Shown: positions 7,693-24,648 of the stretch, piece by piece | Numbering within the stretch: the first letter of the stretch is position 1 | How the letters are laid out: each line of letters begins with the position of its first letter | Assembly: GCA_023129715.1 (NCBI GenBank) | Contig: JAGMBO010000032.1 | Location: forward strand, 22,057-86,056 | Direction: 5' to 3' | Origin: Candidatus Eiseniibacteriota bacterium | GTDB lineage: Bacteria; Eisenbacteria; RBG-16-71-46; CAIMUX01; WJJG01 | Length of the DNA: 64,000 bases | Translations under genes and position numbers: made by a program | The notes under the pieces: model-generated | The model's database searches: none | What the model was told of the DNA's origin: nothing | What the model saw: only the letters and a program-made list of their open reading frames with translations

Positions 7693-9148
7693 TACAATTG
7701 ACAGGACCGCAGCCCCCGGCCCACTGCTCGCGCCGGTGGGAAATGCGATCGGTATAGCCGGACACGCCCAGCTCTCCCCAGCCGAACTAGCGACGGGCCC
7801 CGTAGAACTGGCAGTCATTCTCGCTGCCGGCGAAGGGAATCGTCTGGCCCGACACGGGAACGGTTCGCCCAAGCCGATCGTCTCACTACTGGGGCTGTCC
7901 TTGGGCGAAAGAACCATCCTCTCCTGCCTGGAGGCGGGTATTCAGCGGTTTCTCGTGGTCCTAGGGCACGAGAAGGAGGAAGTCCGAGCCCACTTTGAGA
8001 GGATTGCCGCGCAGCGAGGCTGTGAGATTCGCTTTGTCGAGAGCTCGAACTGGCGTCTGGGCAATGGAGCGAGTGGGCTTGCCGCCGCAGAGGCCGCCGG
8101 GGAGAGGCTTTTTCTGCTCTGCATGGTCGACCATCTGCCGCGTCCAGAACTGATCCGAGCGGTGCGGTCAGCTGCCATCAATGAAGGCGAGATTGGTCTC
8201 GGCATTGACCGTGATCGAGATCAACTCTTTGACCCGGAAGACGCTACGAAGGTCACGATTGAGCATGGCAAAGTCACGCATATAGGAAAGCAGCTTGACG
8301 AATGGGACGCAGCCGATACGGGAGTGTTCTTATGTACCCGTGCCTTGTTCAGCGACCTTGCGGCGGCAGCCTCCCGCGGCCGCCATGGGCTCTCGGACGC
8401 CGTGGCGACTCTCGCCAAACGCGGGGCCGTCCGGGCCATCGATGTCACCGGTCTCGGCTGGCTCGACGTGGACACTCCCAAGGCGTGGGATGAAGCCCGC
8501 CGACGTCTCCTCTCTGGCCTGTCGGGGAAGGGTGAGGACGGCTTTGTCTCACGATTCATCAACCGGCCGATCTCGACTCGAATCTCCGCCTGGCTCTCAT
8601 CCACTTCCATTACGCCAAACCAAATCACTGGCGCCGGCTTCCTACTAGCACTCGTCGGCGCGGCGCTCTTGGCGATGGGCGAGGCGGCACTGACGATTGC
8701 CGGAGGCCTTGTGGTGCACGCAGCCTCCATACTTGATGGCTGCGACGGGGAGATCGCGCGGCTCAAACATCGGGCCACGCGGAGGGGGGCTTGGCTGGAC
8801 ACGATCCTCGATCGCTACGCTGACGTGGCAGTAGCTGCGGCGATCACGTTCGCACATGCTCGGTCCCAAGGCGACCCGCTCGTCTGGCTCGGGGGAATGG
8901 TCGCACTCGCGGGCTTCATCTTGGCCAGCTACACGACCAAAGAGTATGTGATTCGGCACGGATATCCCTACCCCAACGATATTCTCAACCGGCTCAAGCG
9001 TCGCGACCTGCGGCTCATTGTCATTTGCGTAGCCGCGGTCGCTGGGCATCCCTATGCGGGCCTGCTTGCAGTTGGGCTGCTCAGCCACGCCTGCGTATTC
9101 GGAATCCTCGTGCGGGGCTGGAAGATCGACCCAAGAGGTGCACGGTAG
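7682..9148 (+). CDS. Bifunctional CTP:inositol-1-phosphate cytidylyltransferase / CDP-inositol:inositol-1-phosphate transferase (IPCT/DIPPS, di-myo-inositol-phosphate-phosphate synthase).
   Basis: N-terminal nucleotidyltransferase G-loop AVILAAGEGNRL. C-terminal membrane domain carries the CDP-alcohol phosphatidyltransferase motif DGCDGEIARLKHRATRRGAWLDTILDRYAD. ATG 7682 has AAGGAG 5 nt upstream; the track ORF begins at TTG 7667. Confidence 0.75.
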   Translation: MRSNTIDRTAAPGPLLAPVGNAIGIAGHAQLSPAELATGPVELAVILAAGEGNRLARHGNGSPKPIVSLLGLSLGERTILSCLEAGIQRFLVVLGHEKEEVRAHFERIAAQRGCEIRFVESSNWRLGNGASGLAAAEAAGERLFLLCMVDHLPRPELIRAVRSAAINEGEIGLGIDRDRDQLFDPEDATKVTIEHGKVTHIGKQLDEWDAADTGVFLCTRALFSDLAAAASRGRHGLSDAVATLAKRGAVRAIDVTGLGWLDVDTPKAWDEARRRLLSGLSGKGEDGFVSRFINRPISTRISAWLSSTSITPNQITGAGFLLALVGAALLAMGEAALTIAGGLVVHAASILDGCDGEIARLKHRATRRGAWLDTILDRYADVAVAAAITFAHARSQGDPLVWLGGMVALAGFILASYTTKEYVIRHGYPYPNDILNRLKRRDLRLIVICVAAVAGHPYAGLLAVGLLSHACVFGILVRGWKIDPRGAR

Positions 9149-9395
9149 TCGGCTGGCCGTCTCGGGCATGACGCTGAGGCCAATCGACGCAGGCTCCGAC
9201 TGATAGGCTACCAATAGATTCCGGTGAGCAGATCCCTGCTTCTCCGGCTGTTGGGGGCGGATTCGGCTGCCGGCAGCCTGGGCAGGATGGGGGGGGCACG
9301 CTTGCAACCCCGTGGCTGATGGGGGATTGGGGACGTTTTTCGAGCCTTCAGGCGTGCAGCGGGCCCTCTCATGCCCCCAAGATGTCCATAAATGA

Positions 9396-9401
9396 TATAA
9401 T
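9396..9401 (+). promoter_or_regulatory. Extended -10 element (TGaTATAAT) in the only AT-rich patch of the 320-nt intergenic, about 70 nt upstream of the C25 peptidase start.
   Basis: Sequence aatgatataattagg at 9391-9405. No clean -35 hexamer. Confidence 0.3.
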
Positions 9402-9471
9402 TAGGATGGTTGTGGCCGTCCGGAGGGGCGTCCGGTCGGCGCAGGGAGAAACACACCCAAGGGGGAATGTC

Positions 9472-11817
9472 ATGCAGCATACGCGCCTACTGCCGGTTGC
9501 GGTCATCGCAGCCCTCTTGCTCGCGTTCGCACTGCCGGCCTCGGGGACCGCGGCCGAGGGAGCGAACGAGGGGCTCTTGGAATACACGTTGGAGTTCTCC
9601 GAGCATGAGCTCACCTTCGAGAACGCCAAGGGCTTCGATCTGGTCTCCATGGACGAGACCACGTTTCTGAGCACGCCCGGCCATCCGATGCTGCCGGTGC
9701 GCCAGATCAAGATCGCTCTACCATCAGGCCTCGTGGCAACCGGTGTCCGTGTGCTCGCCGTGGAACGCGTCGAACTGCCCGGGCGGTTTCTGGTCTATCC
9801 TGCCCAGCCGGCACGCGCAGGCAGCGATCCCAGCGCGAAGCCCTTCGTCGATCCCATCGCAGACATCTACGCCTCCAGTGAGGTGTACCCTTCTGCAGTG
9901 GTGAGTTTCGTGCATCAGACGGACTTGGCCGGCCAGGGCATCGCCGTCCTCGACGTCACCCCGCTGCAGTACGTTCCGGTGACTGGCCGTCTCTCGATGA
10001 CGACCTCACTGACGATCGGCATCGAACATGAGACCGGCCACCTCTACGGGGACTATCTGCCCCAGAACGCCGCTCCCAAGCTGCGGGCGCGCTACGAAGA
10101 GCGCATCGCCCAGATGGTCGTCAATCCCGAGGATGTCATCGTCGCGAGCGCGCCGCTGATGCGTGGCACGCGCGGGGTCGACCCGGGACAATACGATCTC
10201 GTGATCATCACCGATCCCTATCTCGAATGGGCTTTCGAGCCGCTGGTCGAGTGGAAGACCAAGAAGGGTGTGCCGACGAAGGTCGTGACCACCAGTTGGA
10301 TCTACTACACGGGTGGCTATCCGGGGCCGGAGCAGACCGATCAGATTCGTCAGTTCGTCGAGGATGCGCATGCGACCTGGGGCGCAACCTTCTTCCTGCT
10401 CGGCGGGAACCAGTACAAGGTTCCGGTCAACTACTGGGATACCCCAACGGGGATGAATCCCCCGGTTCTGCCTGAAGACGTCTACTACGCCGACTACGAT
10501 GACGACTGGACTCTCGAGGTCAATGTGGGGCGCTGGCCGATTGGCTACAGCTCGGAGGTCACCGCCCACGTGAACAAGGTTTTGACATATGAAAAGACCC
10601 CGCCGCTGACTGATTACGCGGCCCGCCTGGGGCTCTTCGGCTTCGATCTCGATGCCTCGACGCATGGCGAGGAGTGCAAGGAGTACATCGATAGCCAGTA
10701 CATCCCCGGACACATGGATGTTGTCAAGATCTACGACAGCCATGACGGCAATCATGCCGACTCGGCGATCGTTGCGATCGACTCGGGCCTCCACCTGATC
10801 AACCACATCGATCACTGCAATACGGTCGGTTTGGGCATGGGCTCAGTGAACCATGGCTGGTCGATCACCGGCGCCGATGTCCTGAATTTCGTCAATGGGG
10901 ACCGGCAGTGCATCATCTACTCGACCGGATGCTACGTCGGCGCCTTCGACAACATTGATTGCATCTCGACCGACTTCGTCAACGAGTTCGACAACGGCGC
11001 GATCGCCTTCATCTGCAATACCCGGTATGGCTGGTTCAATCCTGGCCTGTGCACGACGCTCTCGAATCTCTGGGACCGCCGCTTCTGGGGCCAACTCTTC
11101 AACCAGGAGAAGTACACACTGGGTGAGTGTTTCTCGGACCACAAGGATGTGGTCTTTCTGACGAGCAACACACATCGGTACATCTACAAGGAGTTGACCC
11201 TCTTCGGTGATCCGGAGCTGCCACTCTGGACCGATGATCCGGCCGATCTGGTCGTCACCCATGACGCGACCATCGAGACCGGCGGGGCGACGCTTGATGT
11301 GCATGTCGAAGACAGCGGCGGCGGCGCGCTTGAAGAGGTGCGCGTGTGCCTCTGGAAGGGGGATGAGGTCTATCTCGTCGACTACACGGGGGTGACGGGG
11401 GATGTGACCTTCAATCCCAACGCGACGACCGAGGGCACGCTCTATGTGACCGCAACGGTTCACAACTACCTGCCCTACGAAGGGGAGACGGCAGTGCTCG
11501 ATCCGGCGGATGTGGCCGAGGATGCGGTGGTACCGACCGTGCTGCGGCTTCACCCCAACCGCCCCAGCCCGTTCCGGACGACAACGACGATCGCCTATGA
11601 CCTACCCGCGGAGTCGCGGGTCAGCCTGCGGATCTATGATCTGACGGGCCGAGTGATGCGCTCGCTGGTCGATGACCGGATGCAGGTGCAGGGCAGCCAC
11701 GAGGTCGTCTGGGACGGACGAGATGACGCCGGGCGACCGGTGGCATCGGGCGTCTACCTGTATCGGATGGAGAGCGACGAGCAGCAGCTGACGCGTCGGA
11801 TGTTGATGCTGCGCTGA
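9472..11817 (+). CDS. Gingipain-like cysteine peptidase (family C25) with signal peptide and T9SS-type CTD.
   Basis: Signal peptide MQHTRLLPVAVIAALLLAFALPASG. C25 catalytic His (INHIDHCNTVGLG) and Cys (IIYSTGCYVGAFD) regions. C-terminal RLHPNRPSPFRTTTTIAYDLPAESRVSLRIYDLTGRVMRSL...VWDGRDDAGRPVASGVYLYRM. RBS AAGGGGGA. Confidence 0.85.
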   Translation: MQHTRLLPVAVIAALLLAFALPASGTAAEGANEGLLEYTLEFSEHELTFENAKGFDLVSMDETTFLSTPGHPMLPVRQIKIALPSGLVATGVRVLAVERVELPGRFLVYPAQPARAGSDPSAKPFVDPIADIYASSEVYPSAVVSFVHQTDLAGQGIAVLDVTPLQYVPVTGRLSMTTSLTIGIEHETGHLYGDYLPQNAAPKLRARYEERIAQMVVNPEDVIVASAPLMRGTRGVDPGQYDLVIITDPYLEWAFEPLVEWKTKKGVPTKVVTTSWIYYTGGYPGPEQTDQIRQFVEDAHATWGATFFLLGGNQYKVPVNYWDTPTGMNPPVLPEDVYYADYDDDWTLEVNVGRWPIGYSSEVTAHVNKVLTYEKTPPLTDYAARLGLFGFDLDASTHGEECKEYIDSQYIPGHMDVVKIYDSHDGNHADSAIVAIDSGLHLINHIDHCNTVGLGMGSVNHGWSITGADVLNFVNGDRQCIIYSTGCYVGAFDNIDCISTDFVNEFDNGAIAFICNTRYGWFNPGLCTTLSNLWDRRFWGQLFNQEKYTLGECFSDHKDVVFLTSNTHRYIYKELTLFGDPELPLWTDDPADLVVTHDATIETGGATLDVHVEDSGGGALEEVRVCLWKGDEVYLVDYTGVTGDVTFNPNATTEGTLYVTATVHNYLPYEGETAVLDPADVAEDAVVPTVLRLHPNRPSPFRTTTTIAYDLPAESRVSLRIYDLTGRVMRSLVDDRMQVQGSHEVVWDGRDDAGRPVASGVYLYRMESDEQQLTRRMLMLR

Positions 11818-11876: not shown

Positions 11877-13499
11877 CTAGAAAATGACCAGCGGCACCGA
11901 CTGCTGCCCGTCCGCGGATCTCAACCGGGCGAAGTAGCAGCCCCGGGACAGTGGGCGTCCCCATCGATCCCGGCCGTCCCACGGGATGTCGAGGGGCCCA
12001 GGAGAGGCCGACAGACGCCAGTGGCGTACACACCGGCCGTTGGCATCGATGATCTCAACAGCCAGCGGTCCCGATCCGGCGACGTGCAGTTCGAGGGTCA
12101 GCCGGTCCCGCGCGGGAGAGGGGACCGCGGAAATGCGCTGCACGGTGCGTGAGGGTGCCTGCGGGATCGCGCCGGGGCCGGTGCTATAGCGGGATAGATG
12201 CACCTCGTAGTTGTCTTTGTCGCCGGCGAATTCGGTCCAGGCGACCCAGGCGGCGACGGTGGCGCGGTCACCTCGTCCCGGCACGACAATCACATCGGCG
12301 CCGACAATCGAGGGGCGGTACCCGTTCTCGCCGTCGGGGAGACTGATGACGTAGTCCTCGCTCGCGCCGCTCCAGCCCGCGACCTCGAAGAACGAGAAGT
12401 GCTGCTCCTTGCTGCCCGCGGTGTCCTCCTCCTCATCCCAAACCGCGCAAGGGCCCAACGCACCACGCACGGTGACATCGGGATTGTGGGCACTGCGCCC
12501 GCCGCCTTCGTCGTGAGAGACGGGCGTATTGACCGACTCGCCGGTCCAGGTCACCCCGAGGTCAAAGGAACTCGTGGCGTAGATCTCGTAGTGATATGGG
12601 CTGCTCGTATCGAAAGAAGCCTTGTAGACGACGTGGATGCCTTCCTCATGGGAGTAGGGCGCTGCCGCGAGGGCAAGATCGCCGATCAGGGTAGGCGGCT
12701 GGCAGATCTCCCGGTCGGCGGTCGCGCTGCTCCAGGTGAGCCCATCATCACTAGAGATGCCGACGTGGACGGTTTTCTTTCCCGAGTCCCCCGTCTCGTG
12801 CCAGACGACAAAGAGATGATCCTCGCAGGCGGTGATCTGCGGATCGAGGGCGCTGGTGCCGTCGGGGAAGCTGATCACCTGGTCACCGGTCATGCCGCTC
12901 CAGGTAGCCCCGCCGTCGGCCGAGCGCGAGTAGTGGACCTCGGCAGTCTCTCCGGAGAGCTGATGCCAGACGACATGAAAAACCCCGTCGAGATCGCAGG
13001 CGATCGAGGGAATCCCGGCATCCACTGCCGTGGCGGGGTCACTCAAGATCTGATCGGCCGTCTCGCAAGACCAGGTAGTGCCCTGATCATGCGAGACGCC
13101 GAAGTGGATCTCACGCGTGCTGATCGCATCCTCGCTCCAGACGATGATGAGCGAACCGGTCACTGGATTCATGGCCGCCGCGCACTCATCGAGCATCGCC
13201 TGGCCGTCGGGGAAGCTGATCACGCGGTCGGTGAGGGAGGAACTCCAGGTCTCGCCCTCGTCGATGGAGCGACCGTAGTGGATCTCGGCATCCCAGACGA
13301 TATCCTCGGTCCAGAATGCATGCACGGCGGAACCGTCCTCGGCGGCGACAAGTTGTACGGCGCGTGCATACTTGTCGTCGTCACAGCTGATAACCTGGTC
13401 GGCATCCTGACCCGACCAGTCGGCGGCCCGGGCCTGAATGAGCGGGGCGGCCGGTAGCCAGGCGAGGAGGACCAAGCCGAGGGGCGAGAGCGTCTTCAT
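11877..13499 (-). CDS. Secreted BNR/Asp-box repeat protein (sialidase-like beta-propeller) with T9SS-type CTD.
   Basis: Signal peptide MKTLSPLGLVLLAWLPAAPLIQARA. Five or more SxDxGxTW repeats (DEGETWSS, DQGTTWSC, DGGATWSG, DDGLTWSS, DLGVTWTG). C-terminal ...AVEIIDANGRCVRHW...WDGRDRWGRPLSRGCYFARL. RBS GGAGGTG 5 nt upstream of ATG 13499. Confidence 0.8.
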   Translation of the reverse strand: MKTLSPLGLVLLAWLPAAPLIQARAADWSGQDADQVISCDDDKYARAVQLVAAEDGSAVHAFWTEDIVWDAEIHYGRSIDEGETWSSSLTDRVISFPDGQAMLDECAAAMNPVTGSLIIVWSEDAISTREIHFGVSHDQGTTWSCETADQILSDPATAVDAGIPSIACDLDGVFHVVWHQLSGETAEVHYSRSADGGATWSGMTGDQVISFPDGTSALDPQITACEDHLFVVWHETGDSGKKTVHVGISSDDGLTWSSATADREICQPPTLIGDLALAAAPYSHEEGIHVVYKASFDTSSPYHYEIYATSSFDLGVTWTGESVNTPVSHDEGGGRSAHNPDVTVRGALGPCAVWDEEEDTAGSKEQHFSFFEVAGWSGASEDYVISLPDGENGYRPSIVGADVIVVPGRGDRATVAAWVAWTEFAGDKDNYEVHLSRYSTGPGAIPQAPSRTVQRISAVPSPARDRLTLELHVAGSGPLAVEIIDANGRCVRHWRLSASPGPLDIPWDGRDRWGRPLSRGCYFARLRSADGQQSVPLVIF

Positions 13500-13613
13500 G
13501 GGATCACCTCCATGTTCGAGGTGGGCGGATTGCATAGCGCGGCTTGCGCAAGTGCGCCGTGAGGAGGATAGGTCTTTGTGCGCCCGCCTGTCAACTTGGG
13601 AGCGCGGCGTAGC

Positions 13614-14495
13614 TCAGGCCTTGATTTTCTCCAGCACTGCCGTGGGCTTGATCCGATGGCGGGTAAGGCCGACCTCATCGGCCGAGAAGCCCTGAGCGAG
13701 TCCGAGGAGCTGGAAGAAGTAGACCGGTGGAACCTCGAAGTGCTCCTTCGTCTTTCGGTTGAGCAGAAGCTGACCGGTGTCGAATGATGAGAAGCAGGTC
13801 GGGCAGATCATCCCCATGCAATCAGCTCCGCTCTTCCTTACCGAGCGCAACACGCTAGCAGTCATATCCAGGGGAAGGTCGGGGTCGATGCACGCCTTGC
13901 CGCAGCAGAGGAAACGCTCGTCATGAGTGACCGGTTCGGCCCCAATCGCCTCGATGAGCTGATGGAGGATCTGGGGATCATCGGGGTCGTCGACCTGCAT
14001 GATCGAGGAGGGCTTCAGCAAGTGACAGCCGTAGTGCAGCGCGACACGCACGCCCGTCAGGGGGCGGGTGACGCTCTCACGCACGCGATCGATGCCGACC
14101 TTCTCGCGCAACAGGACGACGATATGGCGGACGGCAATCGAACCCTGGTATTTCCGGCCGACGCGCGCGAGGCGCCGGTTGACACGCTCGCGCAGCTGCT
14201 CATCGTTGCGCAGAAGGTGATTGGCTTCGCTCAGGGTGCCGGTGCAGCCGCTGCAGACCGTGAAGATGTCGTGGCCCGCCTCCTCGGCGAGGGCCAGATT
14301 GCGGGCCGCGAGCGTGAGCCAGGCGATCTTGTCGGCGGCCTGGAAGTAGATCGGATCGGGACAGCAGGAAAACCCCTCCAGATCGATGATCTCGACGCCC
14401 AGGTTGGGAAGCGTTCGCCGGATGGCGACTTCCATCTGCGGGTACTTGATCGGGATCAGGCAACCGGGGAAGAAGATGGCCTTGATCGGCTTCAT
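13614..14495 (-). CDS. hdrB: Heterodisulfide reductase subunit B (two CCG cysteine-rich domains).
   Basis: IFFPGCLIP...CCPDP and HYGCHLLKPS...CCGKACIDP motifs typical of HdrB. Overlaps hdrC by 4 nt. Confidence 0.85.
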   Translation of the reverse strand: MKPIKAIFFPGCLIPIKYPQMEVAIRRTLPNLGVEIIDLEGFSCCPDPIYFQAADKIAWLTLAARNLALAEEAGHDIFTVCSGCTGTLSEANHLLRNDEQLRERVNRRLARVGRKYQGSIAVRHIVVLLREKVGIDRVRESVTRPLTGVRVALHYGCHLLKPSSIMQVDDPDDPQILHQLIEAIGAEPVTHDERFLCCGKACIDPDLPLDMTASVLRSVRKSGADCMGMICPTCFSSFDTGQLLLNRKTKEHFEVPPVYFFQLLGLAQGFSADEVGLTRHRIKPTAVLEKIKA

Positions 14496-15040
14496 GATTC
14501 ACTCTCCGCGGTCGAAGAGGGCGGACTGTCTCCCGGGGGCGGATCCTCCGGGGCGAGCACAGCCCGCAATTCCCCCATGTCGATCGCCGGCAGGGGAGGC
14601 AGTCCCATGCTCTCCCGCTTGCGCTTCAGGCTGGCGATCACCGGCGCGCTGCGGCCGGTCTTGAGGATCGTCTCGTAGATGGTTTGGGCCTCCTCGGGAT
14701 GCGTGCCCTCCTCGCGGGCGAGGTTCTTCAGCGCAATAATCACCTCGACGGGCCGGACGTCCTGCGGACAGCGCTCGTAGCAGTTGTAGCAATTGGAGCA
14801 TTTCCAGATCACCGATCCGGGAGCGAGGAGGGTACCCAAGTCTCCGAGCAGGGCGGTCAACATGATCTCCCGCGGATTGAAGCTGGGGAAGAAGCGTGTC
14901 GTGGGACAGTCCCCGACACATGCCCCGCATTGGTAGCAGTAGTTGACATGATTCCCGCCCAGCACGGCGAGCAGCCGCCGCCGCTGGGCGAAATCGATAC
15001 GGATGCGCTTGTGGGGGGATGCGGCTTGTTCTGCTTCCAT
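14492..15040 (-). CDS. hdrC: Heterodisulfide reductase subunit C (2x[4Fe-4S] ferredoxin-like).
   Basis: CYQCGACVGDCP and CSNCYNCYERCP cluster motifs. ATG 15040 preceded by GAGGTG. The track ORF's upstream extension is a read-through. Confidence 0.8.
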   Translation of the reverse strand: MEAEQAASPHKRIRIDFAQRRRLLAVLGGNHVNYCYQCGACVGDCPTTRFFPSFNPREIMLTALLGDLGTLLAPGSVIWKCSNCYNCYERCPQDVRPVEVIIALKNLAREEGTHPEEAQTIYETILKTGRSAPVIASLKRKRESMGLPPLPAIDMGELRAVLAPEDPPPGDSPPSSTAESES

Positions 15041-15086
15041 GGACACCTCGTCCGCCTGGTCTCGATCGGCCGGGCCGTTCGCGCGT

Positions 15087-15230
15087 CTAGCCCTTGGCCT
15101 CTTTGGTGGGCCGGATGCTGTTGCTGCGGCAGCGGGGACAGACCCGCTCGACCGGCTCGCCATCCTTCCTGTGGACCGCGGTGAATTCCAGCCCGCAACG
15201 CAGGCACCGAAACCGCCGTTCTTCCTCCAT
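15087..15230 (-). CDS. Small FmdB-family-like zinc-ribbon protein (47 aa) embedded between hdrA and hdrC.
   Basis: MEEERRFRCLRCGLEFTAVHRKDGEPVERVCPRCRSNSIRPTKEAKG. GGGAGG RBS upstream. Not in the ORF track. Confidence 0.5.
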   Translation of the reverse strand: MEEERRFRCLRCGLEFTAVHRKDGEPVERVCPRCRSNSIRPTKEAKG

Positions 15231-15260
15231 TGTTGCTCTCCCTCCCGGGTAGGGTGCCGG

Positions 15261-17783
15261 CTAGGACTTCGCCGGGCCCGCGACAGATGCCGCCGCCCCC
15301 GCGGACGATTCCGCCCGAGCGTCCGCGGCCGCCTCGCGCTTCTTGCGGGCCGCCGCACGCATCTTCTCTTTCCGCCCTTCCCGCCGCTTGCGCTCCTCGG
15401 CGAGCACCTTGCGGGTATGGGCGATCTCCTCCGCCGTCACCTGAGCTCGCGGTTCATCGAGAACGCGCATCACCTCGGCGAATTTCTGCCCCTCGGCCGC
15501 GCTGATCCACTCGAGGTGGAGGCGCTCGGGGCGGATGCCGAGTTTCTCGAGGCGGTCCCAGGCGCGTTCGACGCGCGTGACCGTCTGCCGGTTGGCATTG
15601 ATGTAGTGGCAATCGGCGAAATGGCAGCCGGAGACGAGCACCAGGGGCGCGCCCTTCTCGAAGGCATAGAGAATCAGGTCCTCCGACACCCGCGCGCTGC
15701 ACATCGTGCGCACCAGGCGCCCATGCACCGGGAACTGCAGACGCGCGGTGCCCGCGGTGTCCCCGCCCGCGTAAGAGCACCAATTGCAGGCGAAGGTCAG
15801 GAGCTTGTCCTCGGGGTGTTCGTCGAGGATCGCATCGATTTGCGCCTTGAGCTGCTCATCGGTCGAGTGGCGCATGGTGAGCGCATCCACCGGGCATTCG
15901 GCGGCGCAGCAGCCGCATCCCGAGCAGGCCGCCTCGATGATCTCGGGCACGCCTCCCCGCTGCCAGTGAATCGCATGGAAGGGACAAACGGCAGCACACC
16001 GCCCGCAGCGGATGCAGTCGGCCTCCTCGAGCAGCGGGGTGCCCGCGTCAATGCGGATCCGGCCCGCACTGAGCAGGACCTGGACGTGAGAGGCTGCGGC
16101 GCCCGCCTGGGTTACACTGTCCTTGACGTCCTTCGGAGACTCGCAGCATCCCGCCAGGAAGATGCCCCGGGTGGGGGCGTCGACGGGCTTGAGTTTGGGA
16201 TGGGCCTCGAGGAAGAAGCCGTCACTGGTGCGGCTGAGGGTCAGCAGGCGTTGGACGGTGTTGGAGTCGAGTCGCGGTCTGACGCCCACCGAGAGCACTA
16301 CCATGTCGAGTTCGTGCTGCTCCAGCTCTCCGGCCAGCGTGTTCTCCACGCGCACCCGCAGGTTCTTCGTCTGTGGGTCTTCCTCGATCTCGCCCGGGAT
16401 CCCGCGGATGTAGCGCACGCCGGAGCTGCGGCTGCGCAGGTACAGATCCTCAAATCCCTTGCCGAACGCGCGGATGTCCATGTAGAAGACCTTCGCGTCG
16501 GTATCGGGATAGTGATCCGCGAGCAGCAGCGTGTCCTTGACCGTATTCATGCAGCAGATGTTCGAGCAGTAAGGCGAGCCATAGCGCGAGGAGCGGGAGC
16601 CGACACACTGGATGAAGCCGATGCGCCGCGGTCGCTCGCCGTCGGAGGGGCGGACGAAATGCCCGGCACTGGGGCCGCCGGCGCAGATCAGCCGTTCGAA
16701 CTCCATGCTGGTGATGACGTTGTCGTAGCGGCTGTATCCATACTCGGTGATCTCGGTCGGGTCGTAGGCCTCCATGCCGGTGGCGACGATCATCGCCCCG
16801 ACATCGACCTCGAGGATCTCATCGCGCATGTCGAAATCGATGCACTTCTGTTCACAGACCTCGAGGCACTTGCCGCAGGCAATCGGGTTGTTGCCCAGGC
16901 AGTCCTCGGGATTGATCAGGTAGGCCGAGGGGACCGCTTGAGGAAAGGGAATGTAGATCGCCTTGCGCGAGGCGAGTCCCATTTGGTACTCGTCGGGAAT
17001 GATGACCGGGCAGACCTTGGTGCACTCCGCGCAGCTATTGCACAGATCCTGCTGCACATAGCGCGCCCTGCGGCGTACCTTGACATGGAAGTTGCCCACC
17101 GCGCCCGAGACGTCGATCACTTCGCTCGAGACCAGAACCTTGATCCGGGGATGCCGACCGGCATCCATCATCTTGGGTCCCAGGATTCATATCGAGCAGT
17201 CCATGGTCGGGTAGGTCTTGTCGAGCTGGGCCATCAGCCCCCCGATCGACGGCTCCTTCTCGACCAGATAGACTTGCATGCCGCCGTCGGCGATGTCGAG
17301 CGCGGCCTGGATGCCGGCGATACCGCCCCCGATGACGAGCGCCGCCTGGGTGACATCGACCTCCGGCTCGATCTGAGGCTGAAGCTCATGAGCCCGCGCG
17401 ACCGCGCTACGCACCAGGTCCTTGGCCTTCTGGGTCGCCCCGGCGGGGTCGCCCGCGTGAACCCACGAGCAGTGCTCACGGAGATTGGCCATCTCCATGA
17501 GATAGGGGTTGAGTCCCGCCTGGGCAACGCAGGCGCGGAAGGTGAGCTCGTGCATCCGGGGCGTGCACGAGGCGACCACCACGCGCTCGAGCTTGTGCTC
17601 GCCGATTGCCTTACGGATCTCGTTCTGCCCCGGGTCGGCGCAGGTGTACTTGTTGTGCACCACACAGACGACGCCGGGCAGGGACTGGGCATACTCGGTC
17701 ACCGCCGCGGTGTCGACCGTTCCGGCGATGTTGAGACCGCAGTCGCAGATAAAGACGCCGGTCCTGGGAAAGTTGTTCTCCAT
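15261..17783 (-). CDS. hdrA: HdrA-like flavoprotein with in-frame UGA (predicted selenocysteine at 17187-17189) and a C-terminal MvhD domain (HdrA-MvhD fusion). Ends in a Lys/Arg-rich tail.
   Basis: Two track ORFs (17187..17783 and 15261..17171) are one frame joined by TGA. ...[63 protein letters not shown] aligns with the archaeal HdrA motif LDKTFPT-DCSMC-ILxPK. The C-terminus carries the MvhD signature [16 protein letters not shown]...VRTMCSARV...[12 protein letters not shown]. Confidence 0.8.
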
Positions 17784-17830
17784 CAGCTCCTCTCCGTCTT
17801 GCGGAACCCTGGTTCTCGCAACTCCTCGAT

Positions 17831-19810
17831 TCAGACCTTGGTCCCCTGATCACCCACCGACTGTCCCGCTGCGGCCGCGACCCCCGCGGCGGTTGGCGGC
17901 AAGGCGTCGGCGAGCAGATTCCACAGATCGACGATCTCGAGATCGGCCGCGGGATCTTCGGTCAGGCCTTCCTGGGCGCACCGCAGGTGAATGAAGCACC
18001 CGGGACACGCCGTTACCAGGCGCCGGCCGCCGGTGGCGACTGCCTCGGCGAGACGATCGGCCTGGAAGCGCTTCGTGGCTGCATTGCAGTTGAGCCAAGC
18101 CGTATTGCCGCAGCAGACCGCGCGCTCGCGATGATGCTCCATCTCGACGAGTTCGACACCGGCGACTTCGGTCAGCAGTTGGCGCGGGCGGTCGTAGATG
18201 CCCGAATGGCGGCCCAGCCGGCAGGGATCTTGATAGGTGACCCGGCCGTCGGCGGAATCGGTAGCCATTTCGGCGAGCTCCTCGCGCAGCGCGCCCAAGA
18301 CCAAGCTCAGGTGGGTCACCTCGCAGGCGACGTTGTGGCGGTCGAGCGCATCGCGTAGGGCCACCAGGCATTCGGGGCAGAAGGTGATCACGCGCGTCGC
18401 CCCACTGGCGCGGACTTGGTCGACGACCAGCGCCTCGAGTTCGTCGGCCTCGCGGGCGTAACCGGCGAGGCGCAGGTGGTATCCGCAACAGCGCTCATTG
18501 GCGAGCAGAGCGGGCCTGATGCCCACGTGGTTGAGCAGTTGCACGGCCGAGGACATCGTGCGGGTGAGTCCCGCCCCGGTCTCGCCGCCGAAGTAGGCGG
18601 AGAAGTAGGGGCTGCAGCCCACATAGAGCAGATCGTCCGACTTGCCGCGCTGCCCATCCGCGAGCACCTCGACCTCGAGATCCTCGCTCAGCCAGCCGAG
18701 ACGTTGCTGGCGCAACCCCGGCCGCGCCGCCATGCGGCTGATCTGCTCGAAGACCCCGCCATGGGAGCAGGGCGTGACCTCGTACCCAACCTGCTGCGTC
18801 TCGCCGCCCCAGCCGCTCGCCGCTGTGGACCCGCTGGGCTGCCGGCCATCGCCTGGCTGGCCCTCCGGCGCGGCCGGGGCCGGGTCACCGTCAGTCGCAC
18901 CGGATCGGCGGGCGACCGCCTGCGCGCGGGCACTCACGATGAACTGGCCATAGTCGACGCGCACGGGACAGACCGCCTCGCAAGCACTGCAGGTCAAGCA
19001 GGTCCAGAGAGCCGGATCGTTGGCGGGGCCGGCGGCGCCTGCGGCGAAGGTCCGGGTGATCAGACGGCGCGGGGAGAAACGCTGATAGCGGGCCACCGGA
19101 CAGACGGCGGTACAGCGCCCGCACTCCAGGCAGGCGAAGACGCGCGTGGCTTCGAGGGGCGGGGTTCCCGAGGGCGCAGGTTCGTTCCGGGCATCGCCGC
19201 CGGCGTCGTTTCCCGGCGCCAGCGGGCTGCGGCCGACGCCGCGCACCGCCTCAATGAACTCGTTCATCGTCTCGGCGAAGCGAATCCCCTCGGCGGCCGA
19301 GATCCACTCGAGGCGCAGGCGTTCCGGCTCCAGTCCGAGCAGAGCGGCAAGGGCGGAGGTCTTCTCGTACTGCTCCATGGCCCGGTAGTTGCCGAACATG
19401 TAGTGGCAATCGCCCGGATGACAGCCCGAGACCATCACACCGTCGGCCCCCTGCGCGAAGGCCCGCAAGACATGGCTTGGATGCACGCGCCCCGAGCACA
19501 TCACACGCAGCAGGCGGAAGTTGGGCTCATGCTGCAGTCGCGAGACGCCGGCCGTATCGGCACCGGCGTACGAACACCAGTTGCAGGCGAAGACGAGCAC
19601 CCGGGGATCGAAGCGCTCGCCGCCCGGCTCTTCCCCGGCGCGGGCGGCTGGACGGGATTCACCCGACTTCGCCGCCCGGCTGCGCGTGACGCCCTTGGAC
19701 GCTGCGGCCGGCGCGCGCTTTTTCGTCGTGCCACGGGGCGCGGCCGCGCCCTCCTTCGCACCTGGTGTCTTCCCACTTCCTTGCGCACGTTTCTCGGTCA
19801 TACCACCCAT
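17831..19810 (-). CDS. MvhD-HdrC-HdrB fusion (HdrD-like iron-sulfur/CCG protein with N-terminal MvhD domain and basic low-complexity N-tail).
   Basis: [18 protein letters not shown]...VMCSGRV...[11 protein letters not shown] (MvhD). [12 protein letters not shown] and [12 protein letters not shown] (2x4Fe4S). [14 protein letters not shown] and [12 protein letters not shown] (CCG domains). Start at 19810 or 19801 is uncertain. Confidence 0.75.
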
Positions 19811-19823
19811 CCTGCCGGCAGCC

Positions 19824-22800
19824 CTAATGGTCCGCCCGCTCGTGAACCTCCACGGCGAAGAGATCATCGATCATCGCGGTGATCTGATCGTCGGTGAAGT
19901 GTTGTGCGGTGATCGCGCCGGTCGGACACCAAACGGCGCAGGTGCCGCATCCCTTGCAGAGCGCCGCGTTGATGCTCGCCACCAGCGAGCCGGCAGGGTC
20001 GGTCACCAGACCCGGCGCCTGGAATTCGCAGATCGACACGCAGAGACCACATCCCCGGCAGCGGTCGGGATCGACCCGGCAGGCGGTCGGCTCGAGGAAT
20101 AGCCGGCCGGCGCCGAGCAGGGCGGCGACCCGCGCGGCTGCGGCGGAAGCCTGAATCAGCGAGTCGCGGAGATCCTTGGCCCCCTGGGCGGTGCCGCAGA
20201 GCACCACACCGTCGACGCACGTCTCGACCGGGGCCAGTTCCGGGTGGCGTTCGAGGAAGAAGCCGTCGGTGCCGCGCGGGGTCTTCAGCATCTGCTGGAC
20301 GCGACCCGCCTCTTGCGCGCGGGGCACGAGACCCACGGCCAGGACAACGAGATCCACCTCTGCGATGACCTCGCCGCGCAGCAGCGTATCCTCGGCGACG
20401 ACCTCGTGCGCCCGGCCATCGCGGCCCTGAACCACAGGGGGAGCACTGGCGTCGTAGCGGATGAAGAGCGTACCCATCTCGCGGGCCTGGCGATAGCTCT
20501 CCTCGGCGCCACAGCCGACCATGCGCATGTCGCGATAGAAGATAGTCGAGTCGATGTCATGCCCGTGGAGCTGCTGTGCCTGCTTGATCGTGGTCGGGCA
20601 GCAGATGCGGGAACACCCGGGGCAACCCGTCGCCGCGGGGCGCTCCGCGGATTCGGCCCCGTCGGTGCGCGCGGCTGCGGAGTCGGCAGGATCCCGTCGT
20701 GAGCCGACACACTGGATGAAGGCGACGCGCTCGACCCCCGCGAGGCCCTCGGTGCCCTGGGCCAGCCGGGCCTCCAGCTCCACCGAGGTGATCACGTTGC
20801 GATAGGTTCGATACCCGAACTCACCCTCCGCGGGCACATAGGGGTCGGCGCCGATGGCGACGACGATCGCGCCCGCTTCGATGTCCTCCTCATCGGGGCC
20901 TGGTTCGACGGGGGTGCGGGGGGCGGGATGCTCCCCGGCGGACTCCCGGGTAGCATCCCGGGATTCCGGCTTCCCGGAGATGGTTTCCCCGGAATCCTGC
21001 GCCGGTCCCAGCCGAACCCGGAAGTTGCCGACGAAGCCGGTCACCTGTCGGATGTCGGTGGACAGCCGCAGATCGACGCCGCTCTCCGCGACACGTGCCA
21101 GCATGCTTCCAACGGCCTCCTGCGCGTCCCGTCCGTCGGGATAGAGTGAGTGAAGATCGCGCAGCAGTCCGCCCGCAGCGGGAGCGCTCTCGATCAGGGT
21201 CACCTCGAAACCGAGGGCCTTGAGATCACTGGCGGCCTTCATTCCCGGCAAGCCGGCGCCCATGACAACCACCCGGCGGCTCACACTGACCTCGATCGGC
21301 TCGAGCGGCTCGAGGCGGCGGGCGCGCGCGACGCCCATTCGCAGCAAGTCGAGCGCCTTGGCGGTCGCCTGGCCGGGGGCGGCGGCATGGACCCAGGAGC
21401 ACTGATCGCGAACGTTGACCATCTCGAGCAAGTAGGGGTTCAGCCCCGCCTCAAGGCAGTTCTGCCGGAAGATCGGCTCGTGGGTCCGCGGCGTGCAGGC
21501 GGCCACGACGACGCGGGTGAGCTTGTGCTCCTCGATCGCATCCTGGATCGCCTGCTGCGAGCTGCTCGAGCAGGCGAAGAGCTCCTCGCCGACATGGACG
21601 ACGCTCGGGAGGTCGCGGGCGGTGGCCAGGAGCGCCGACATGTCGAGAACTCCGGCGATATTGACTCCACAATGACAGAGAAAGACGCCGATGCGTGGCG
21701 CCCCATCCTCGACGGTATCGCCGCCTGCGATGCCGTGGTCGTCCCATTCGTTGGCGGCGTGTTCCTCGACAGCCGATTCACCCGCAGCCTCCGATGGGCA
21801 CGCGGTCCCCGCCGCGGCAGGGACAGGCGGCACGCCGCCGCCCAGGGAGATCGCCGCCTCGGTCGCCGCCGCCGACCCCTGAGTCACGCAGTCGGGGATC
21901 ACCTGCGGCCCGGTTGCGCTGCCACAGACGAAGACGCCGGCCCGATTGCTGGCCATCGGCCGCTCGCCCGGGCTGGTCTGGAAGAAGCCGTGGGGAGTAG
22001 TAGTGATGCCCAGACGTGCGGCGAGCTCGGCGGTGCCGTCGGTCGGCACACCGCCGCAGGAGAGAATGACCATGTCGGCAGTGAGCCGTAGCTGCTCGCC
22101 GGTCTCGGTGTTCTCGACGGCGACCTGCAGGTCATGCGAGGCGGGGTCTTCGAGGATCTTGGCGGGCCGGCCGCGCAGGAAGTGGATCCACTCGGTGTCC
22201 CGGGCGCGCCCGTAGAACTCCTCGAAGCCCTTGCCGAAGGCGCGCACGTCGGTGTAGAGAATCGTTACCGCCTCCAGGTCGGGTTCGTGCTGTTTGAGCA
22301 GCAACCCATCCTTGATCGCGTTCATGCAGCAGAAACGCGAGCAGTAGGCGCGCCCCGCCTCACCGCGCGATCCGACGCACTGTACGTAGATCAGGTTGCG
22401 GGGAGAGCCGCCGTCGGAAGGACGGCGCACATGGCCCAGGGTGGGGCCCGAGGCGTTGAGGAGGCGCTCGAGTTCCAGGCTGGTCAGGACGTTGGGATAG
22501 ACTCCGTAGCCGTAGTTGCGCAGCACGCGCGGATCGAATTCGTCGAAGCCGGTCGCGGCGATTACCGCGCCGACCTCGAGGATCCGATCCTCCGGTGTTG
22601 CATCGAGGTCGATGGCATCGCGCGTACAGGCCTTGACGCAGAGCTTGCACTGGCGGCAGAGCTCGAAATCGATCGCATAGGCGGCGGGGACCGATTGGGG
22701 GAAGGGGCGTCCGATCGCCTTGCGCGGCCCCATCCCGGCATCGAAGCGGCTGAGCCCCTCGGCGGGACAGACCTCGGCGCAGGCGCCACAGGCGGTGCAG

Positions 22801-23126
22801 CGCGCTTCATCGACCCCCGTCGGGTGCCGGCGGATGGTGGCGCGAAAGGCCCCCGCCTCACCCTCGAGAGTGAGGAGCTCGGAACAGCGCAAGATCTCGA
22901 TCCGGGGATGCCGACCGGCATCCATCATCTTGGGACCGAGGATTCAGATCGCGCAGTCCATCGTGGGAAAGGTCTTGTCGAGCTGGGCCATCCGCCCGCC
23001 CAACGACGGCGTGCGCTCTACCAGGAAGACCTGATGCTGCGCCGTGGCCAGATCCAGGGCGGCCTGGATCCCGGCAATGCCGCCGCCGATGACGAGAACC
23101 GCCCTGTCTCGGTCGCTGCCTGCCAT
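19824..23126 (-). CDS. hdrA: Tandem-domain HdrA-like flavoprotein (HdrA2-type). N-terminal FAD module has in-frame UGA (predicted Sec at 22944-22946). Second HdrA-like module lacks the Sec/Cys motif. C-terminal 2x[4Fe-4S] ferredoxin.
   Basis: The track splits it into 22944..23126 and 19824..22928. ...[37 protein letters not shown] second CxCGxNIA domain ([15 protein letters not shown]) and a second Rossmann module ([17 protein letters not shown]) follow. C-terminus [13 protein letters not shown]...[12 protein letters not shown]. Confidence 0.8.
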
Positions 23127-23143
23127 GATCCCCCTTCCTTGTT

Positions 23144-23722
23144 TCAGATGTCCGCGGCCTTGGCCGGCCCGCCCTTGGCGGCTACCGCCTCGGCGGCGTA
23201 TTGCAACCCCTGTTCGAGGGCTGAGAGGTTGAAGTCCTCGGTCCCCGCGGGCACCGAGGTGCGCACCGCTTCGCGCAGCGCCTCGACCTCAACGAGGCCG
23301 GTACAGCCGACGAGGAAGCCGAGCATGACGATATTGGCCGCCATGCGACGGCCCATCTTCTCCGCCGTGCGCGTCGCCGGTACGGAGGCGACGAAGCTCG
23401 CCTGGGCGGGCGGTGTTCCCGCGTCGACCAGATCCTGGTCGTAGAGCAGCACGCCTCCGTCAATGAGCTCCTCCGTCCAGCTGTCGTAGCCCTCCTGCGA
23501 CATCGCCACCAGGATTTCCTGACCGCGGACGTAGGGGTAGTGGATCGGTTCGTCGGCGACGACGACCTGCGCAGCGCAGGCGCTGCCGCGGGCCTCGGGA
23601 CCATAGGACTGCACCAGGGTGGCCGACTTATGGTCGTAGACGCTGGCCGCCTTCCCGAGAACGTAACCCGCCAGGACGATTCCCTGCCCGCCGAACCCGG
23701 TGATACGGATCTCTCTTCTCAT
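23144..23722 (-). CDS. korC: 2-oxoacid:ferredoxin oxidoreductase gamma subunit.
   Basis: [22 protein letters not shown]... matches the Por/Kor gamma family signature. 17-nt gap to hdrA2. Confidence 0.8.
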
Positions 23723-23742
23723 CGCGTTTGCTCCACTCGTCG

Positions 23743-24648
23743 CTAACGTCCCCGCCGCTGCGCCAGATTGGCGCCCATCCGGTCGAGGAAGGTCGGTTTC
23801 TCGATGTCGACGAACTTGCCGACGACGATCTTCTCCTGGAAGCCGATGTCGATCTCGGCGGTATTGGCGCCGTGGCGGACTTCGCAGTTGTCGTGATAGA
23901 ACTTCATCAAGTCGGTGCCGGTGCCCAGGCGATTCTTGCGCGCATAGAGCGTCGAACAGGGGGCGATGACCTCGATGAAGGAGAATCCTCGATGGCTGAG
24001 CGCCGCGACCATCGCCTGCTTCATGCGGCGCACGTGCAGGGCGGTCCAGCGCGCGACGTAGGTGGCGCCACAGGAGGCGACCAGGTGGGGGACATTGAAG
24101 GGGTACTCGCTGTTCCCGTAAGGCGAGGTCGTGGTGCGGGCGCCGTGCGGGGTCGTCGGGGCGAGTTGCCCGCCGGTCATGCCATAGATGAAGTTGTTGA
24201 CGCAGATGATCGTGATGTCGATATTGCGCCGCGCCGCATGGATCAGATGATTGCCGCCGATCGCCACCAGATCTCCGTCACCGCTGAAGACGACCACCTT
24301 CAGCTTCGGATTCGCCAGGTGCAGCCCCGTCGCAAAGGGGATCGCCCTGCCGTGGGTCGTGTGGAAGGAGTCGAGGTTGACATAGCCGGCGACCCGTCCC
24401 GTGCAACCGATGCCGGAGACCACGGCGAATCGCTCCTCGGGGATGCCGCTCTCCTCGATCGCCTCGACGAAGCTGCTGACGCAGGTGCCGATGCCGCAGG
24501 TCGGGCACCAGATGTGCGGCAGGCGATCGCTGCGCAGCAGGCGGTCCTTGGGATGCGCATGAGCCTCGCGGACATCCGGCGCCGGCGGGGCTGCGGTGTC
24601 CGATCCGCCGGCTCCTGCACCGGCCGCTGTTGCGGCTTTCTGGTTCAT
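23743..24648 (-). CDS. korB: 2-oxoacid:ferredoxin oxidoreductase beta subunit (TPP-binding).
   Basis: WCPTCGIG...GIGCTGR...VVFSGDGDLVAIGGNHLIHAARRNIDITIICVNNFIYGMTGGQ, a TPP-binding motif. Confidence 0.85.
   Translation of the reverse strand: MNQKAATAAGAGAGGSDTAAPPAPDVREAHAHPKDRLLRSDRLPHIWCPTCGIGTCVSSFVEAIEESGIPEERFAVVSGIGCTGRVAGYVNLDSFHTTHGRAIPFATGLHLANPKLKVVVFSGDGDLVAIGGNHLIHAARRNIDITIICVNNFIYGMTGGQLAPTTPHGARTTTSPYGNSEYPFNVPHLVASCGATYVARWTALHVRRMKQAMVAALSHRGFSFIEVIAPCSTLYARKNRLGTGTDLMKFYHDNCEVRHGANTAEIDIGFQEKIVVGKFVDIEKPTFLDRMGANLAQRRGR

Follow-up and report, generated by a model that had tools for sequence, protein, structure and literature searches.

An in-frame TGA in an hdrA2-type gene of a Candidatus Eiseniibacteriota bacterium as a probable selenocysteine codon with a SECIS-like hairpin

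The hdrA2-type gene (HdrA fused to MvhD) at positions 15261..17783 (minus strand) of the window, i.e., of the whole 64,000-nucleotide stretch analysed here, raises the question of whether the TGA that interrupts it ends translation or is read as an amino acid. It had been claimed in an earlier note that the open reading frames 17187..17783 and 15261..17171 share one frame and are parted by a TGA alone, and the sequence agrees: among the 840 codons of the gene (UGA included), the TGA at 17189..17187, codon 199, is the sole internal stop. Public annotation takes this TGA as a stop and lists two products of 198 and 636 aa. The answer favoured here, to which we assign a probability of roughly 0.9, is that the TGA is a selenocysteine (Sec) codon, probably decoded via a hairpin located downstream.

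On either side of the TGA, the domains of HdrA and MvhD are all complete. Pfam identifies FAD/Pyr_redox, Fer4, and FlpD domains, and homology to HdrA extends over the full length of the protein, from the N-terminal Fe-S domain through the thioredoxin-reductase-like FAD domain to the inserted and C-terminal ferredoxin domains (PDB 5ODC_A, residues 6-652, E=2e-230). With Cys placed at codon 199, the product scores 1139.7 bits against the NCBIfam HdrA2 model NF040770 (cut-off 1100). In alignments, the UGA (17187..17189, minus strand) falls on Cys197 of 5ODC_A and on the residue printed 'x' at position 197 of 9sfi_A, which upholds the claim that the TGA occupies a conserved HdrA cysteine and gives the predicted motif C196-S-I-U199. 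Cys is found in this column in the full-length family members P0014, P0025, P0007, and P0013 and in the HdrAs of the PDB, and the database ORFs P0001 ('MLDAGRHP') and P0019 ('MVDVGRHP') start just 3' of it, a pattern expected of mis-called Sec genes. The wording 'active-site cysteine' holds for the conserved Cys position; 'active-site' is imprecise, as the residue forms the second position of a C-x-x-C/U motif within the FAD domain. TGA is the terminator of 11 of the 28 confident genes in the window, so any recoding would be local rather than genome-wide. When the window was scanned for pairs of ORFs joined by a TGA (at least 80 codons on each side), protein-like flanks were found at two HdrA sites only; the remaining pairs were G+C-rich spurious frames or real gene ends.

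The candidate SECIS apical hairpin, GGAUGCC-GGUC-GGCAUCC, lies at 17149..17166 (minus strand), with stem arms at 17166..17160 and 17155..17149 and the loop at 17159..17156. As had been noticed at the outset, the 7-bp stem is perfect and begins about 20 nt 3' of the UGA (20 nt to the first stem base), and the GGUC loop is that of the E. coli fdhF SECIS, located downstream of UGA codon 140; the distance from the UGA to the loop is 27 nt (17186..17160). The hairpin is present in the minimum free energy (MFE) fold (-14.1 kcal/mol for a 36-nt segment and -23.2 for 60 nt), and the mean MFE over 116 homologues is -11.75. In the bacterial SECIS model, an apical loop of 3-9 nt, with G at position 1 or 2, usually followed by G or U, caps an upper stem of 4-16 bp, the UGA is 16-37 nt from the loop, and the MFE is -7.5 kcal/mol or lower (PMC13188914 Fig. 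2). The HdrA hairpin agrees with this model in all sequence and fold features (loop of 4 nt, stem of 7 bp, distance of 27 nt, -14.1 kcal/mol). By itself, it is weak evidence, because its fold z-scores against shuffles reach only -1.3 to -1.9 in this 65% G+C sequence and because 20 of the 1635 TGA trinucleotides in the window (1.2%) precede a perfect stem of 7 bp or more under loose SECIS criteria. Among those 20 sites, a GGTC tetraloop occurs at the two HdrA sites only, and a search of the window for further copies of the hairpin, which might mark more selenoprotein genes, returned none beyond these two. An Rfam scan of the window at gathering thresholds gave no match to a SECIS family, and a permissive scan of 17100..17230 (E<=10) gave nothing on the coding strand; ROSE_3, on the opposite strand of that interval (E=1.8), was dismissed as a chance match. 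A conserved lower helix was also considered and rejected: the single-sequence folds of the two paralogs pair different flanks, and RNAalifold retains only the apical stem of 6-7 bp.

Comparison with related loci was based on the best 80 of 553 relatives, which share 65-82% identity and carry about 15 phylum labels. In all 80 loci, TGA is present at the HdrA codon, the frame is open on both sides of it, and the same hairpin follows; many of the related genomes carry the TGA twice. Among these best 80 of 553 relatives (species-level genomes), no Cys variant occurs at either HdrA gene of the cassette. A separate assembly of run SRR13892596 likewise contains the TGA at the first HdrA site. Across about 15 phyla, the consensus hairpin, GGAUGYC-GGUC-GRCAUCC, is almost invariant. 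In 116 distinct sequences, 96.6% of the stem cells are paired; in the loop, GG is invariant, the third base is U in 115 sequences (one has GGC), and the fourth is C in 110 sequences, with A in the other 6. Appreciable covariation is limited to one stem pair, 41-48 (C-G in 74 sequences, U-A in 26, and U-G in 15), at which a GCC-to-GTC change (Ala to Val) is compensated by a synonymous CGG-to-CGA change; the other pairs are invariant or nearly so and are thus uninformative for structure. Third codon positions within the hairpin are frozen (GAT, NNC, and CAT each in 116/116 and GGT in 115/116), with 0-0.07 bits at synonymous sites, compared with 1.4-2.0 bits at flanking four-fold sites. The Cys-type paralogs L037:9840 and L043:10682, which served as a negative control, do not have the hairpin. 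The TGA stands on a conserved Cys, recurs in a second paralog, and is conserved in 80 of 80 relatives; together with the covariation and the frozen synonymous sites, this is far beyond chance.

The second paralog is a tandem (fused) HdrA gene of 1100 codons at 19824..23126 (minus strand). Its UGA, at codon 61 (22944..22946, minus strand; predicted Sec61), also aligns with Cys197 of 5ODC_A, and the hairpin at 22906..22923 (minus strand) matches the first one exactly. The two paralogs share 36 identical nucleotides (columns 25-60 of alignment A1) and differ at synonymous sites on both sides of this stretch. With respect to 5ODC_A, residues 10-382 of paralog 2 correspond to residues 146-518, residues 477-623 match the N-terminal domain (4-150), and residues 909-1090 correspond to 471-650. 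This arrangement suggests that the tandem fusion acts as an intramolecular heterodimer. It resembles the description of tandem HdrA in ANME in that the Cys197 equivalent (here Sec61) belongs to a module that lacks the N-terminal domain; however, the module order is reversed, as the module with the N-terminal domain comes first in the ANME description, and the ligand position is occupied by Sec rather than by Cys.

It is reasonable to ask whether the TGA could still be what the public gene calls make of it. Their two products of 198 and 636 aa would fit a genuine stop in a pseudogene, and since the sequence comes from a metagenome-assembled genome, a Cys codon (TGC or TGT) might have been altered by a sequencing or assembly error. 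Neither a decaying gene nor an error accounts readily for a TGA that recurs in 80 of the best 80 of 553 relatives (twice in many), that reappears in an independent assembly, and that stands in an intact frame, highly conserved on both flanks, with a conserved covarying hairpin downstream; the comparative data leave such explanations next to no chance, and they may be regarded as effectively refuted. On the split-gene reading, translation would stop at the TGA and restart at the ATG at 17171..17169, which is 15 nt past the TGA and is the position at which many database ORFs begin, the two polypeptides would assemble into HdrA, and the hairpin would serve termination-reinitiation or mRNA stability. 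Nonetheless, the break would then fall inside the C-x-x-C motif of the FAD-binding domain, precisely where Cys-type homologues have Cys and M. maripaludis has Sec. Moreover, ILGPK, the product of the five codons that separate the ATG from the TGA, is conserved as protein in 116/116 sequences while its synonymous sites are free to vary, indicating that these codons are translated, and in 47 of the 116 sequences the codon after AAG is GCC instead of ATG, so that the restart codon is gone. A split gene is thus extremely unlikely.

The hairpin itself might have no function as RNA and might be kept through conservation of the peptide MDAGRHP or through gene conversion between the paralogs. Indeed, D, G, R, and H never vary among the aligned proteins, and both paralogs have the identical 36-nt stretch in common. 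However, the Asp codon in the hairpin is always GAT (116/116), whereas an upstream Asp codon is GAC in 91 sequences and GAT in 25, and the Gly codon in the hairpin is GGT in 115 of 116, whereas an upstream Gly codon is found with all four bases; such frozen synonymous third positions are not explicable by protein constraint. Where Ala has become Val, a synonymous change in the Arg codon restores the base pair, and Cys-type paralogs with a similar peptide (..SRHPNIE) have no hairpin, which makes a hairpin without RNA function a very remote prospect. If the UGA is translated, it could also be read as something other than Sec, by a near-cognate Trp, Cys, or Gly tRNA, by a suppressor tRNA, or by Cys-tRNA(Sec) via SelB, with the hairpin acting as a general stimulator of read-through. 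What speaks for such a reading is that no Sec machinery was found on the 73-kb contig: selA, selB, selD, and tRNA-Sec were sought in the window and at both contig ends, NCBIfam scans of 30 window proteins revealed no sel genes, tblastn with E. coli SelA, SelB, and SelD gave no match in the window, the sole tRNA that ARAGORN detected in the window was a tRNA-Trp, and 60 related loci yielded no tRNA-Sec. On the other hand, TGA normally terminates other genes of the window (the 11 of 28 mentioned above), Sec is already known from this position of HdrA (PMC13518236), the hairpin conforms to the SelB-type SECIS model and bears the fdhF loop GGUC, and selD and selB adjoin the cluster in two relatives. 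These two, L013 and L014, are the only related loci in which sel genes were found; the genes adjoin the same cluster and comprise selD as a NifS-SelD fusion (398 bits, cut-off 125) and the C-terminal part of selB (in L014 at 13173..14423, plus strand). Decoding of the UGA as an amino acid other than Sec is therefore judged highly improbable.

The reading of the TGA as a Sec codon, proposed earlier together with the SECIS-like hairpin, is supported by the Cys197/Sec197 column, by the fit to the SECIS model, and by membership in a known selenoprotein family; the accompanying statement that HdrA is a known selenoprotein is borne out for both methanogens and bacteria (PMC1794560, PMC2702500, PMC13518236). 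Decoding would presumably take the route that is canonical in bacteria. With the ribosome at UGA199, the 18-nt hairpin, which starts 20 nt downstream, would still be outside the ribosome. The C-terminal domain of SelB may bind the hairpin through its GGUC loop, and SelB-GTP would then compete with release factor 2 by bringing Sec-tRNA(Sec) to the A site, after which translation would run on through the remaining 641 codons. UGA61 of the tandem HdrA would be decoded by the same device. The product would carry the motif C196-x-x-U199 in its thioredoxin-reductase-like FAD domain. Reports differ on the role of the residue equivalent to position 197 of HdrA: a crystal structure shows it as fourth ligand to the [4Fe-4S] cluster that belongs to the other protomer's N-terminal domain (PMC9012536), whereas in the cryo-EM map of the M. 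maripaludis enzyme it is seen as a Sec-Cys selenylsulfide (PMC13518236). By homology, residue 199 might either be a ligand of the N-terminal [4Fe-4S] cluster of the partner protomer or form a reversible Se-S bond with the neighbouring Cys, and in either role it would lie on the route of electrons between the bifurcating FAD and the clusters of the ferredoxin side.

The genes around the two hdrA genes described below all lie on the minus strand. Between the two lies a 678-aa MvhD-HdrC-HdrB-like fusion (17831..19867; Pfam FlpD, Fer4_8, and two CCG domains, with NCBIfam matches), whose position is syntenic in relatives. Downstream of the first gene are hdrC (14492..15040; Pfam Fer4 dicluster; TIGR03290 at E=5e-29, under the family cut-off) and hdrB (13614..14495; two Pfam CCG domains; TIGR03288 at 307 bits, under the cut-off of 345), and between hdrA2 and hdrC there is a publicly called 47-aa zinc-ribbon ORF (15087..15230; Pfam Zn_ribbon_8) with a tblastn match in 15 related loci. 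Directly upstream of paralog 2, in the same orientation, are the gamma, beta, and alpha genes of a 2-oxoacid:ferredoxin oxidoreductase (OFOR; 23144..26192; Pfam POR, TPP_enzyme_C, POR_N, and PFOR_II), a neighbourhood that is kept in relatives. The fixed Sec position in both HdrA genes, the lack of Cys variants among the best 80 of 553 relatives, and the shared hairpin invite the speculation that the OFOR/tandem-HdrA/MvhD-HdrCB/HdrA2/HdrC/HdrB cassette is an obligately selenium-dependent module, which we regard as a tentative and rather doubtful idea. If it were true, Sec at this HdrA site, where it might serve a [4Fe-4S] cluster as selenolate ligand, would not be replaceable by Cys in this type of enzyme, and horizontal transfer would have spread the cassette along with a SECIS that very divergent SelB proteins can read.

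Judged from sequence comparison, the gene is very probably a mis-annotated addition to the known HdrA selenoprotein family. As Sec in HdrA is already well known, the finding leaves the understanding of Sec decoding and of HdrA unchanged. Nonetheless, recognising the Sec codons restores two complete subunits of flavin-based electron bifurcation and implies Sec decoding in an uncultured Eiseniibacteriota-like bacterium and in many relatives from other candidate phyla; a library search for papers on Eisenbacteria together with selenocysteine gave no match. If Sec is decoded, the ferredoxin-linked Hdr module would depend on selenium. The near-invariant hairpin also offers a simple nucleotide signature by which mis-called HdrA selenoprotein genes could be recovered from metagenomes; as it is matched by no Rfam family, an RNA family model could be built on it.

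Sec197 has been described in the HdrA of M. maripaludis (PMC13518236; PDB 9sfi), and the Sec-HdrAs of Methanococcus maripaludis and Methanocaldococcus jannaschii belong to the same family as the protein considered here, with the same residue position and the same C-x-x-U motif in the FAD domain. An MvhD/VhuD module is associated with HdrA in both cases, although here MvhD is fused to HdrA. The archaeal hdrA genes have an archaeal-type SECIS in the 3'-UTR (PMC13188914), whereas the hairpin described here is of the bacterial type and lies inside the coding sequence; moreover, those hosts are methanogens, whereas this one is a non-methanogenic bacterium. The HdrA2 of Methanosarcina (an HdrA-MvhD fusion, NF040770) has the same domain architecture, but the named family is archaeal, and its function as a CoB-CoM heterodisulfide reductase is not transferable because the bacterium is not known to make these coenzymes. 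In bacteria, Sec-HdrA has been reported from Deltaproteobacteria and Clostridia, including Syntrophobacter fumaroxidans, Syntrophus, Desulfobacterium autotrophicum, and Moorella (PMC1794560, PMC2702500). These systems are similar in having multiple copies per genome, hdrA-hdrA fusions, and co-located genes for MvhD/FrhD and HdrB/C-like (GlpC) proteins. They differ in the host lineage, which here, to judge by the nearest relatives, is Candidatus Eiseniibacteriota, in that the MvhD and HdrCB-like proteins are encoded here without an in-frame TGA, and in the linkage of the cluster, here to a 2-oxoacid:ferredoxin oxidoreductase instead of a hydrogenase.

With regard to the RNA element, the E. coli fdhF SECIS is likewise a coding-region hairpin 3' of a UGA; the GGUC tetraloop is identical, and the upper stem is again rich in G+C. 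However, a U is bulged out of the upper stem of fdhF, and the minimal fdhF hairpin begins 11 nt past the UGA, whereas the HdrA hairpin has no bulge and begins at 20 nt; the loop starts 18 nt after the UGA in fdhF and 27 nt after it in HdrA. The fdhF element also has an extended lower helix, compared with a perfect 7-bp stem and no conserved lower helix found in HdrA. The HdrA hairpin would work like the fdhF SECIS but is no copy of it.

The gene hdrA2, which encodes an HdrA-MvhD fusion (17783..15261, minus strand), comprises 841 codons with one internal stop, a TGA at codon 199 (17189..17187, minus strand). The open reading frames 17187..17783 and 15261..17171 thus form one frame, of which this TGA is the only interruption, and the earlier note was correct in its positions and description of both the TGA and a hairpin at 17166..17149. 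With cysteine set at codon 199, the 840-residue product contains FAD/pyridine-nucleotide-disulfide oxidoreductase, ferredoxin, and FlpD (MvhD) domains. It exceeds the cut-off of the NCBIfam HdrA2 model (1139.7 vs. 1100 bits) and matches the crystallised HdrA 5ODC_A over residues 6-652 (E=2e-230) and MvhD chains over residues 658-779. In the public record DAOVPT010000022.1 (L086, L088), the contig of MAG GCA_030629055.1 of which the window is a part, the gene is split into products of 198 and 636 aa, i.e., the putative selenocysteine (Sec) codon has been annotated as a stop.

The TGA falls, as had been proposed, on a conserved cysteine of HdrA. Codon 199 aligns without gaps with Cys197 of 5ODC_A, with the cysteine in ...DCSMCIL... 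of the PDB HdrA chain 8rvu, and with residue 197 of 9sfi_A, given there as a non-standard residue ('x'), in agreement with the Sec197 described for Methanococcus maripaludis HdrA (PMC13518236); the local motif in hdrA2 is C196-S-I-U199. The wider HdrA family includes Cys forms, and in a 50%-clustered protein library the full-length members P0014, P0025, P0007, and P0013 carry cysteine in this column. Two other entries, P0001 ('MLDAGRHP...') and P0019 ('MVDVGRHP...'), start just past it, as is typical of mis-called Sec genes. The term 'active-site cysteine' used in the earlier note is approximate, because the literature does not agree on the chemical role of this residue: Cys197 of the crystallised enzyme provides the fourth ligand to the [4Fe-4S] cluster held by the N-terminal domain of the partner protomer (PMC9012536); for M. 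maripaludis, the cryo-EM map seems to show a bond between Sec197 and a Cys, and its authors proposed that a thiol-selenol relay links FAD with the N-terminal-domain cluster (PMC13518236).

The hairpin GGAUGCC-GGUC-GGCAUCC (17166..17149, minus strand) begins 20 nt after the UGA. The bacterial SECIS model (PMC13188914, Fig. 2) specifies a loop of 3-9 nt with a G in its first two positions, a stem of 4-16 bp, a UGA-loop distance of 16-37 nt, and a minimum free energy (MFE) of -7.5 kcal/mol or lower; with a loop of 4 nt (GGUC), a stem of 7 bp, a UGA-loop distance of 27 nt, and an MFE of -14.1 kcal/mol, the hairpin agrees with the model in all four respects. By itself, it is weak evidence in a sequence of 65% G+C. 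The fold z-scores of the region are -1.3 to -1.9, an Rfam scan of the hairpin returned no family match, and perfect stems of at least 7 bp (loose criteria) follow 20 of the 1635 TGAs in the window, the GGTC tetraloop occurring among these only at the two HdrA sites.

The question of the TGA in hdrA2 is decided by comparative evidence. In a scan of species-representative genomes, the best 80 of 553 related loci (65-82% identity, approx. 15 phylum-level labels, the nearest labelled Candidatus Eisenbacteria, i.e., Eiseniibacteriota) all have TGA at the codon that aligns with codon 199, and in 34 of them an upstream tandem-HdrA paralog has it as well. A near-invariant hairpin is common to these 80 loci across many phyla. 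When 116 distinct 81-nt segments are aligned, 96.6% of the stem cells are paired, compared with 25-57% in slid registers; the base pair between columns 41 and 48 is C-G in 74, U-A in 26, and U-G in 15 segments, a GCC-to-GTC (Ala-to-Val) change being paired with a synonymous CGG-to-CGA change, and the observed covariation score was reached by no shuffle. No Cys forms were seen in the 80 loci other than two more divergent, third HdrA-like paralogs in the flanks of L037 (approx. 9840) and L043 (approx. 10682), in which the codon is TGC (...TLDCSQCILTP...) and the downstream GGUC hairpin is missing. Such uniform Sec at an orthologous codon across the 80 closest genomes, together with the shared hairpin, is mildly unexpected.

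Conservation of the hairpin through protein constraint alone is contradicted by the compensatory CGG-to-CGA change and by frozen synonymous sites within the hairpin (GAT 116/116; third base C of GCC/GTC 116/116; GGT 115/116; CAT 116/116; 0-0.07 bits). The neighbouring Gly, Pro, and Leu codons on the upstream side and the Pro codon on the downstream side are free to vary (1.4-2.0 bits), and the Asp codon four codons 5' of the TGA is GAC in 91 and GAT in 25 segments. The constraint is thus on the RNA rather than on the protein. A sequencing error or a pseudogene is excluded as the source of the TGA, which is kept in all of the best 80 of 553 loci and found again in an independent assembly of SRR13892596. 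Global reassignment of TGA in this organism is also excluded, because TGA ends 11 of the 28 confident genes in the window. A true division of hdrA2 into two genes, as in the public gene calls, is contradicted because the five codons that lie between the TGA and the following ATG keep their amino acids while their synonymous sites vary freely; moreover, this first ATG is replaced by GCC in 47 of the 116 sequences.

An NCBIfam scan of 30 proteins from the window detected no SelA, SelB, or SelD, the E. coli sequences of these gave no tblastn match in the window, and none of the three was found in the 9 kb of contig beyond it; the single tRNA in the window is tRNA-Trp. Indirect support comes from two related Ignavibacteriaceae MAGs (L013 and L014) in which the TGA and the hairpin are both present: a fusion of NifS (cysteine desulfurase) and SelD (734 aa; TIGR00476, 398 bits; cut-off, 125) and the C-terminal portion of SelB are encoded at most 6 kb from the hdr cluster, directly beside hdrA(Sec)-hdrC-hdrB (L013, 10970..14423; L014, 10976..14423). 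By analogy with the canonical bacterial pathway (PMC13188914), the GGUC loop would be bound by SelB-GTP-Sec-tRNA(Sec) while the hairpin is still folded outside the ribosome with UGA in the A site, and Sec would be inserted in competition with RF2.

A scan for TGA-joined frames revealed one other credible case in the window, at 22946..22944 (minus strand). This TGA is codon 61 of 1100 in paralog 2, a tandem (fused) HdrA (23126..19824, minus strand) whose ATG start follows a purine-rich (AAGGAAGGGGG) stretch resembling a ribosome-binding site. Its hairpin (22923..22906, minus strand) has the same sequence as that of hdrA2, within 36 nt that are identical between the paralogs and on both sides of which synonymous sites differ. 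In the Logan assembly of SRR13892596, contigs L087 (end 11101) and L089 (end 2136) break within this stretch, a short exact repeat that evidently causes k-mer assemblies to fragment at the locus. The first module of paralog 2 aligns with residues 146-518 of 5ODC_A, with the TGA on Cys197, and residues 477-623 constitute an HdrA N-terminal domain; a counterpart of Cys197 is absent from the second module. The same complementarity between Cys197 and the N-terminal domain has been described for fused HdrAs (PMC9012536), which suggests that Sec61 serves the cluster within the internal N-terminal domain.

Both genes belong to a co-oriented cluster (13614..26192, minus strand) in the order 2-oxoacid:ferredoxin oxidoreductase (OFOR) alpha, beta, and gamma, tandem HdrA, MvhD-HdrC-HdrB-like fusion, hdrA2, 47-aa zinc ribbon, HdrC, and HdrB. 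The same order is found in related loci L002, L003, L005, L013, L014, and L033 and is kept across several phyla, although the zinc ribbon is not a constant member; this conservation suggests that OFOR is functionally linked to the Hdr module. The cluster is flanked by several very large secreted-type proteins (71..5230, 9319..11817, 11877..13535, and 43604..46549; beta-helix/NosD-like, C25 peptidase/PorU-like, and BNR) with FlgD_ig-like or T9SS-type C-terminal domains. The window also contains an IS3-family transposase ORF (5638..6558, plus strand; NF033516, E=4.5e-42, under the family cut-off; assigned to Pfam rve by the public gene call), two adjacent glucose-1-phosphate adenylyltransferase paralogs (glgC/glgD-like; 36204..38901, minus strand), and a 1234-aa ORF (28523..32227, minus strand) that matches PLP-dependent aminotransferases only around residues 825-1070, its N-terminal approx. 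800 residues having no NCBIfam match. At 6823..9148 (plus strand), an inositol-monophosphatase-like gene precedes a fusion resembling bifunctional inositol-1-phosphate cytidylyltransferase/CDP-inositol inositolphosphotransferase (241 bits, under the 580 cut-off), which hints at di-myo-inositol-phosphate or inositol lipid synthesis.

As the earlier note stated, HdrA is a known selenoprotein family; its Sec forms are well documented in methanogens as well as in Deltaproteobacteria and Clostridia (PMC1794560, PMC2702500). Sec-HdrA was described in 2006 at the latest, and bacterial copies in which hdrA genes are fused were among those known (PMC1794560). The literature library searched contains no publication on selenocysteine for the Candidatus Eiseniibacteriota lineage. 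Judging by its sequence, hdrA2 is most probably a new, mis-annotated case of this known family. Its GGUC loop is identical to that of the E. coli fdhF SECIS (NC_000913.3; UGA at codon 140), as had been claimed, but the fdhF element has a bulged U and a spacing of 18 nt vs. 27 nt here.
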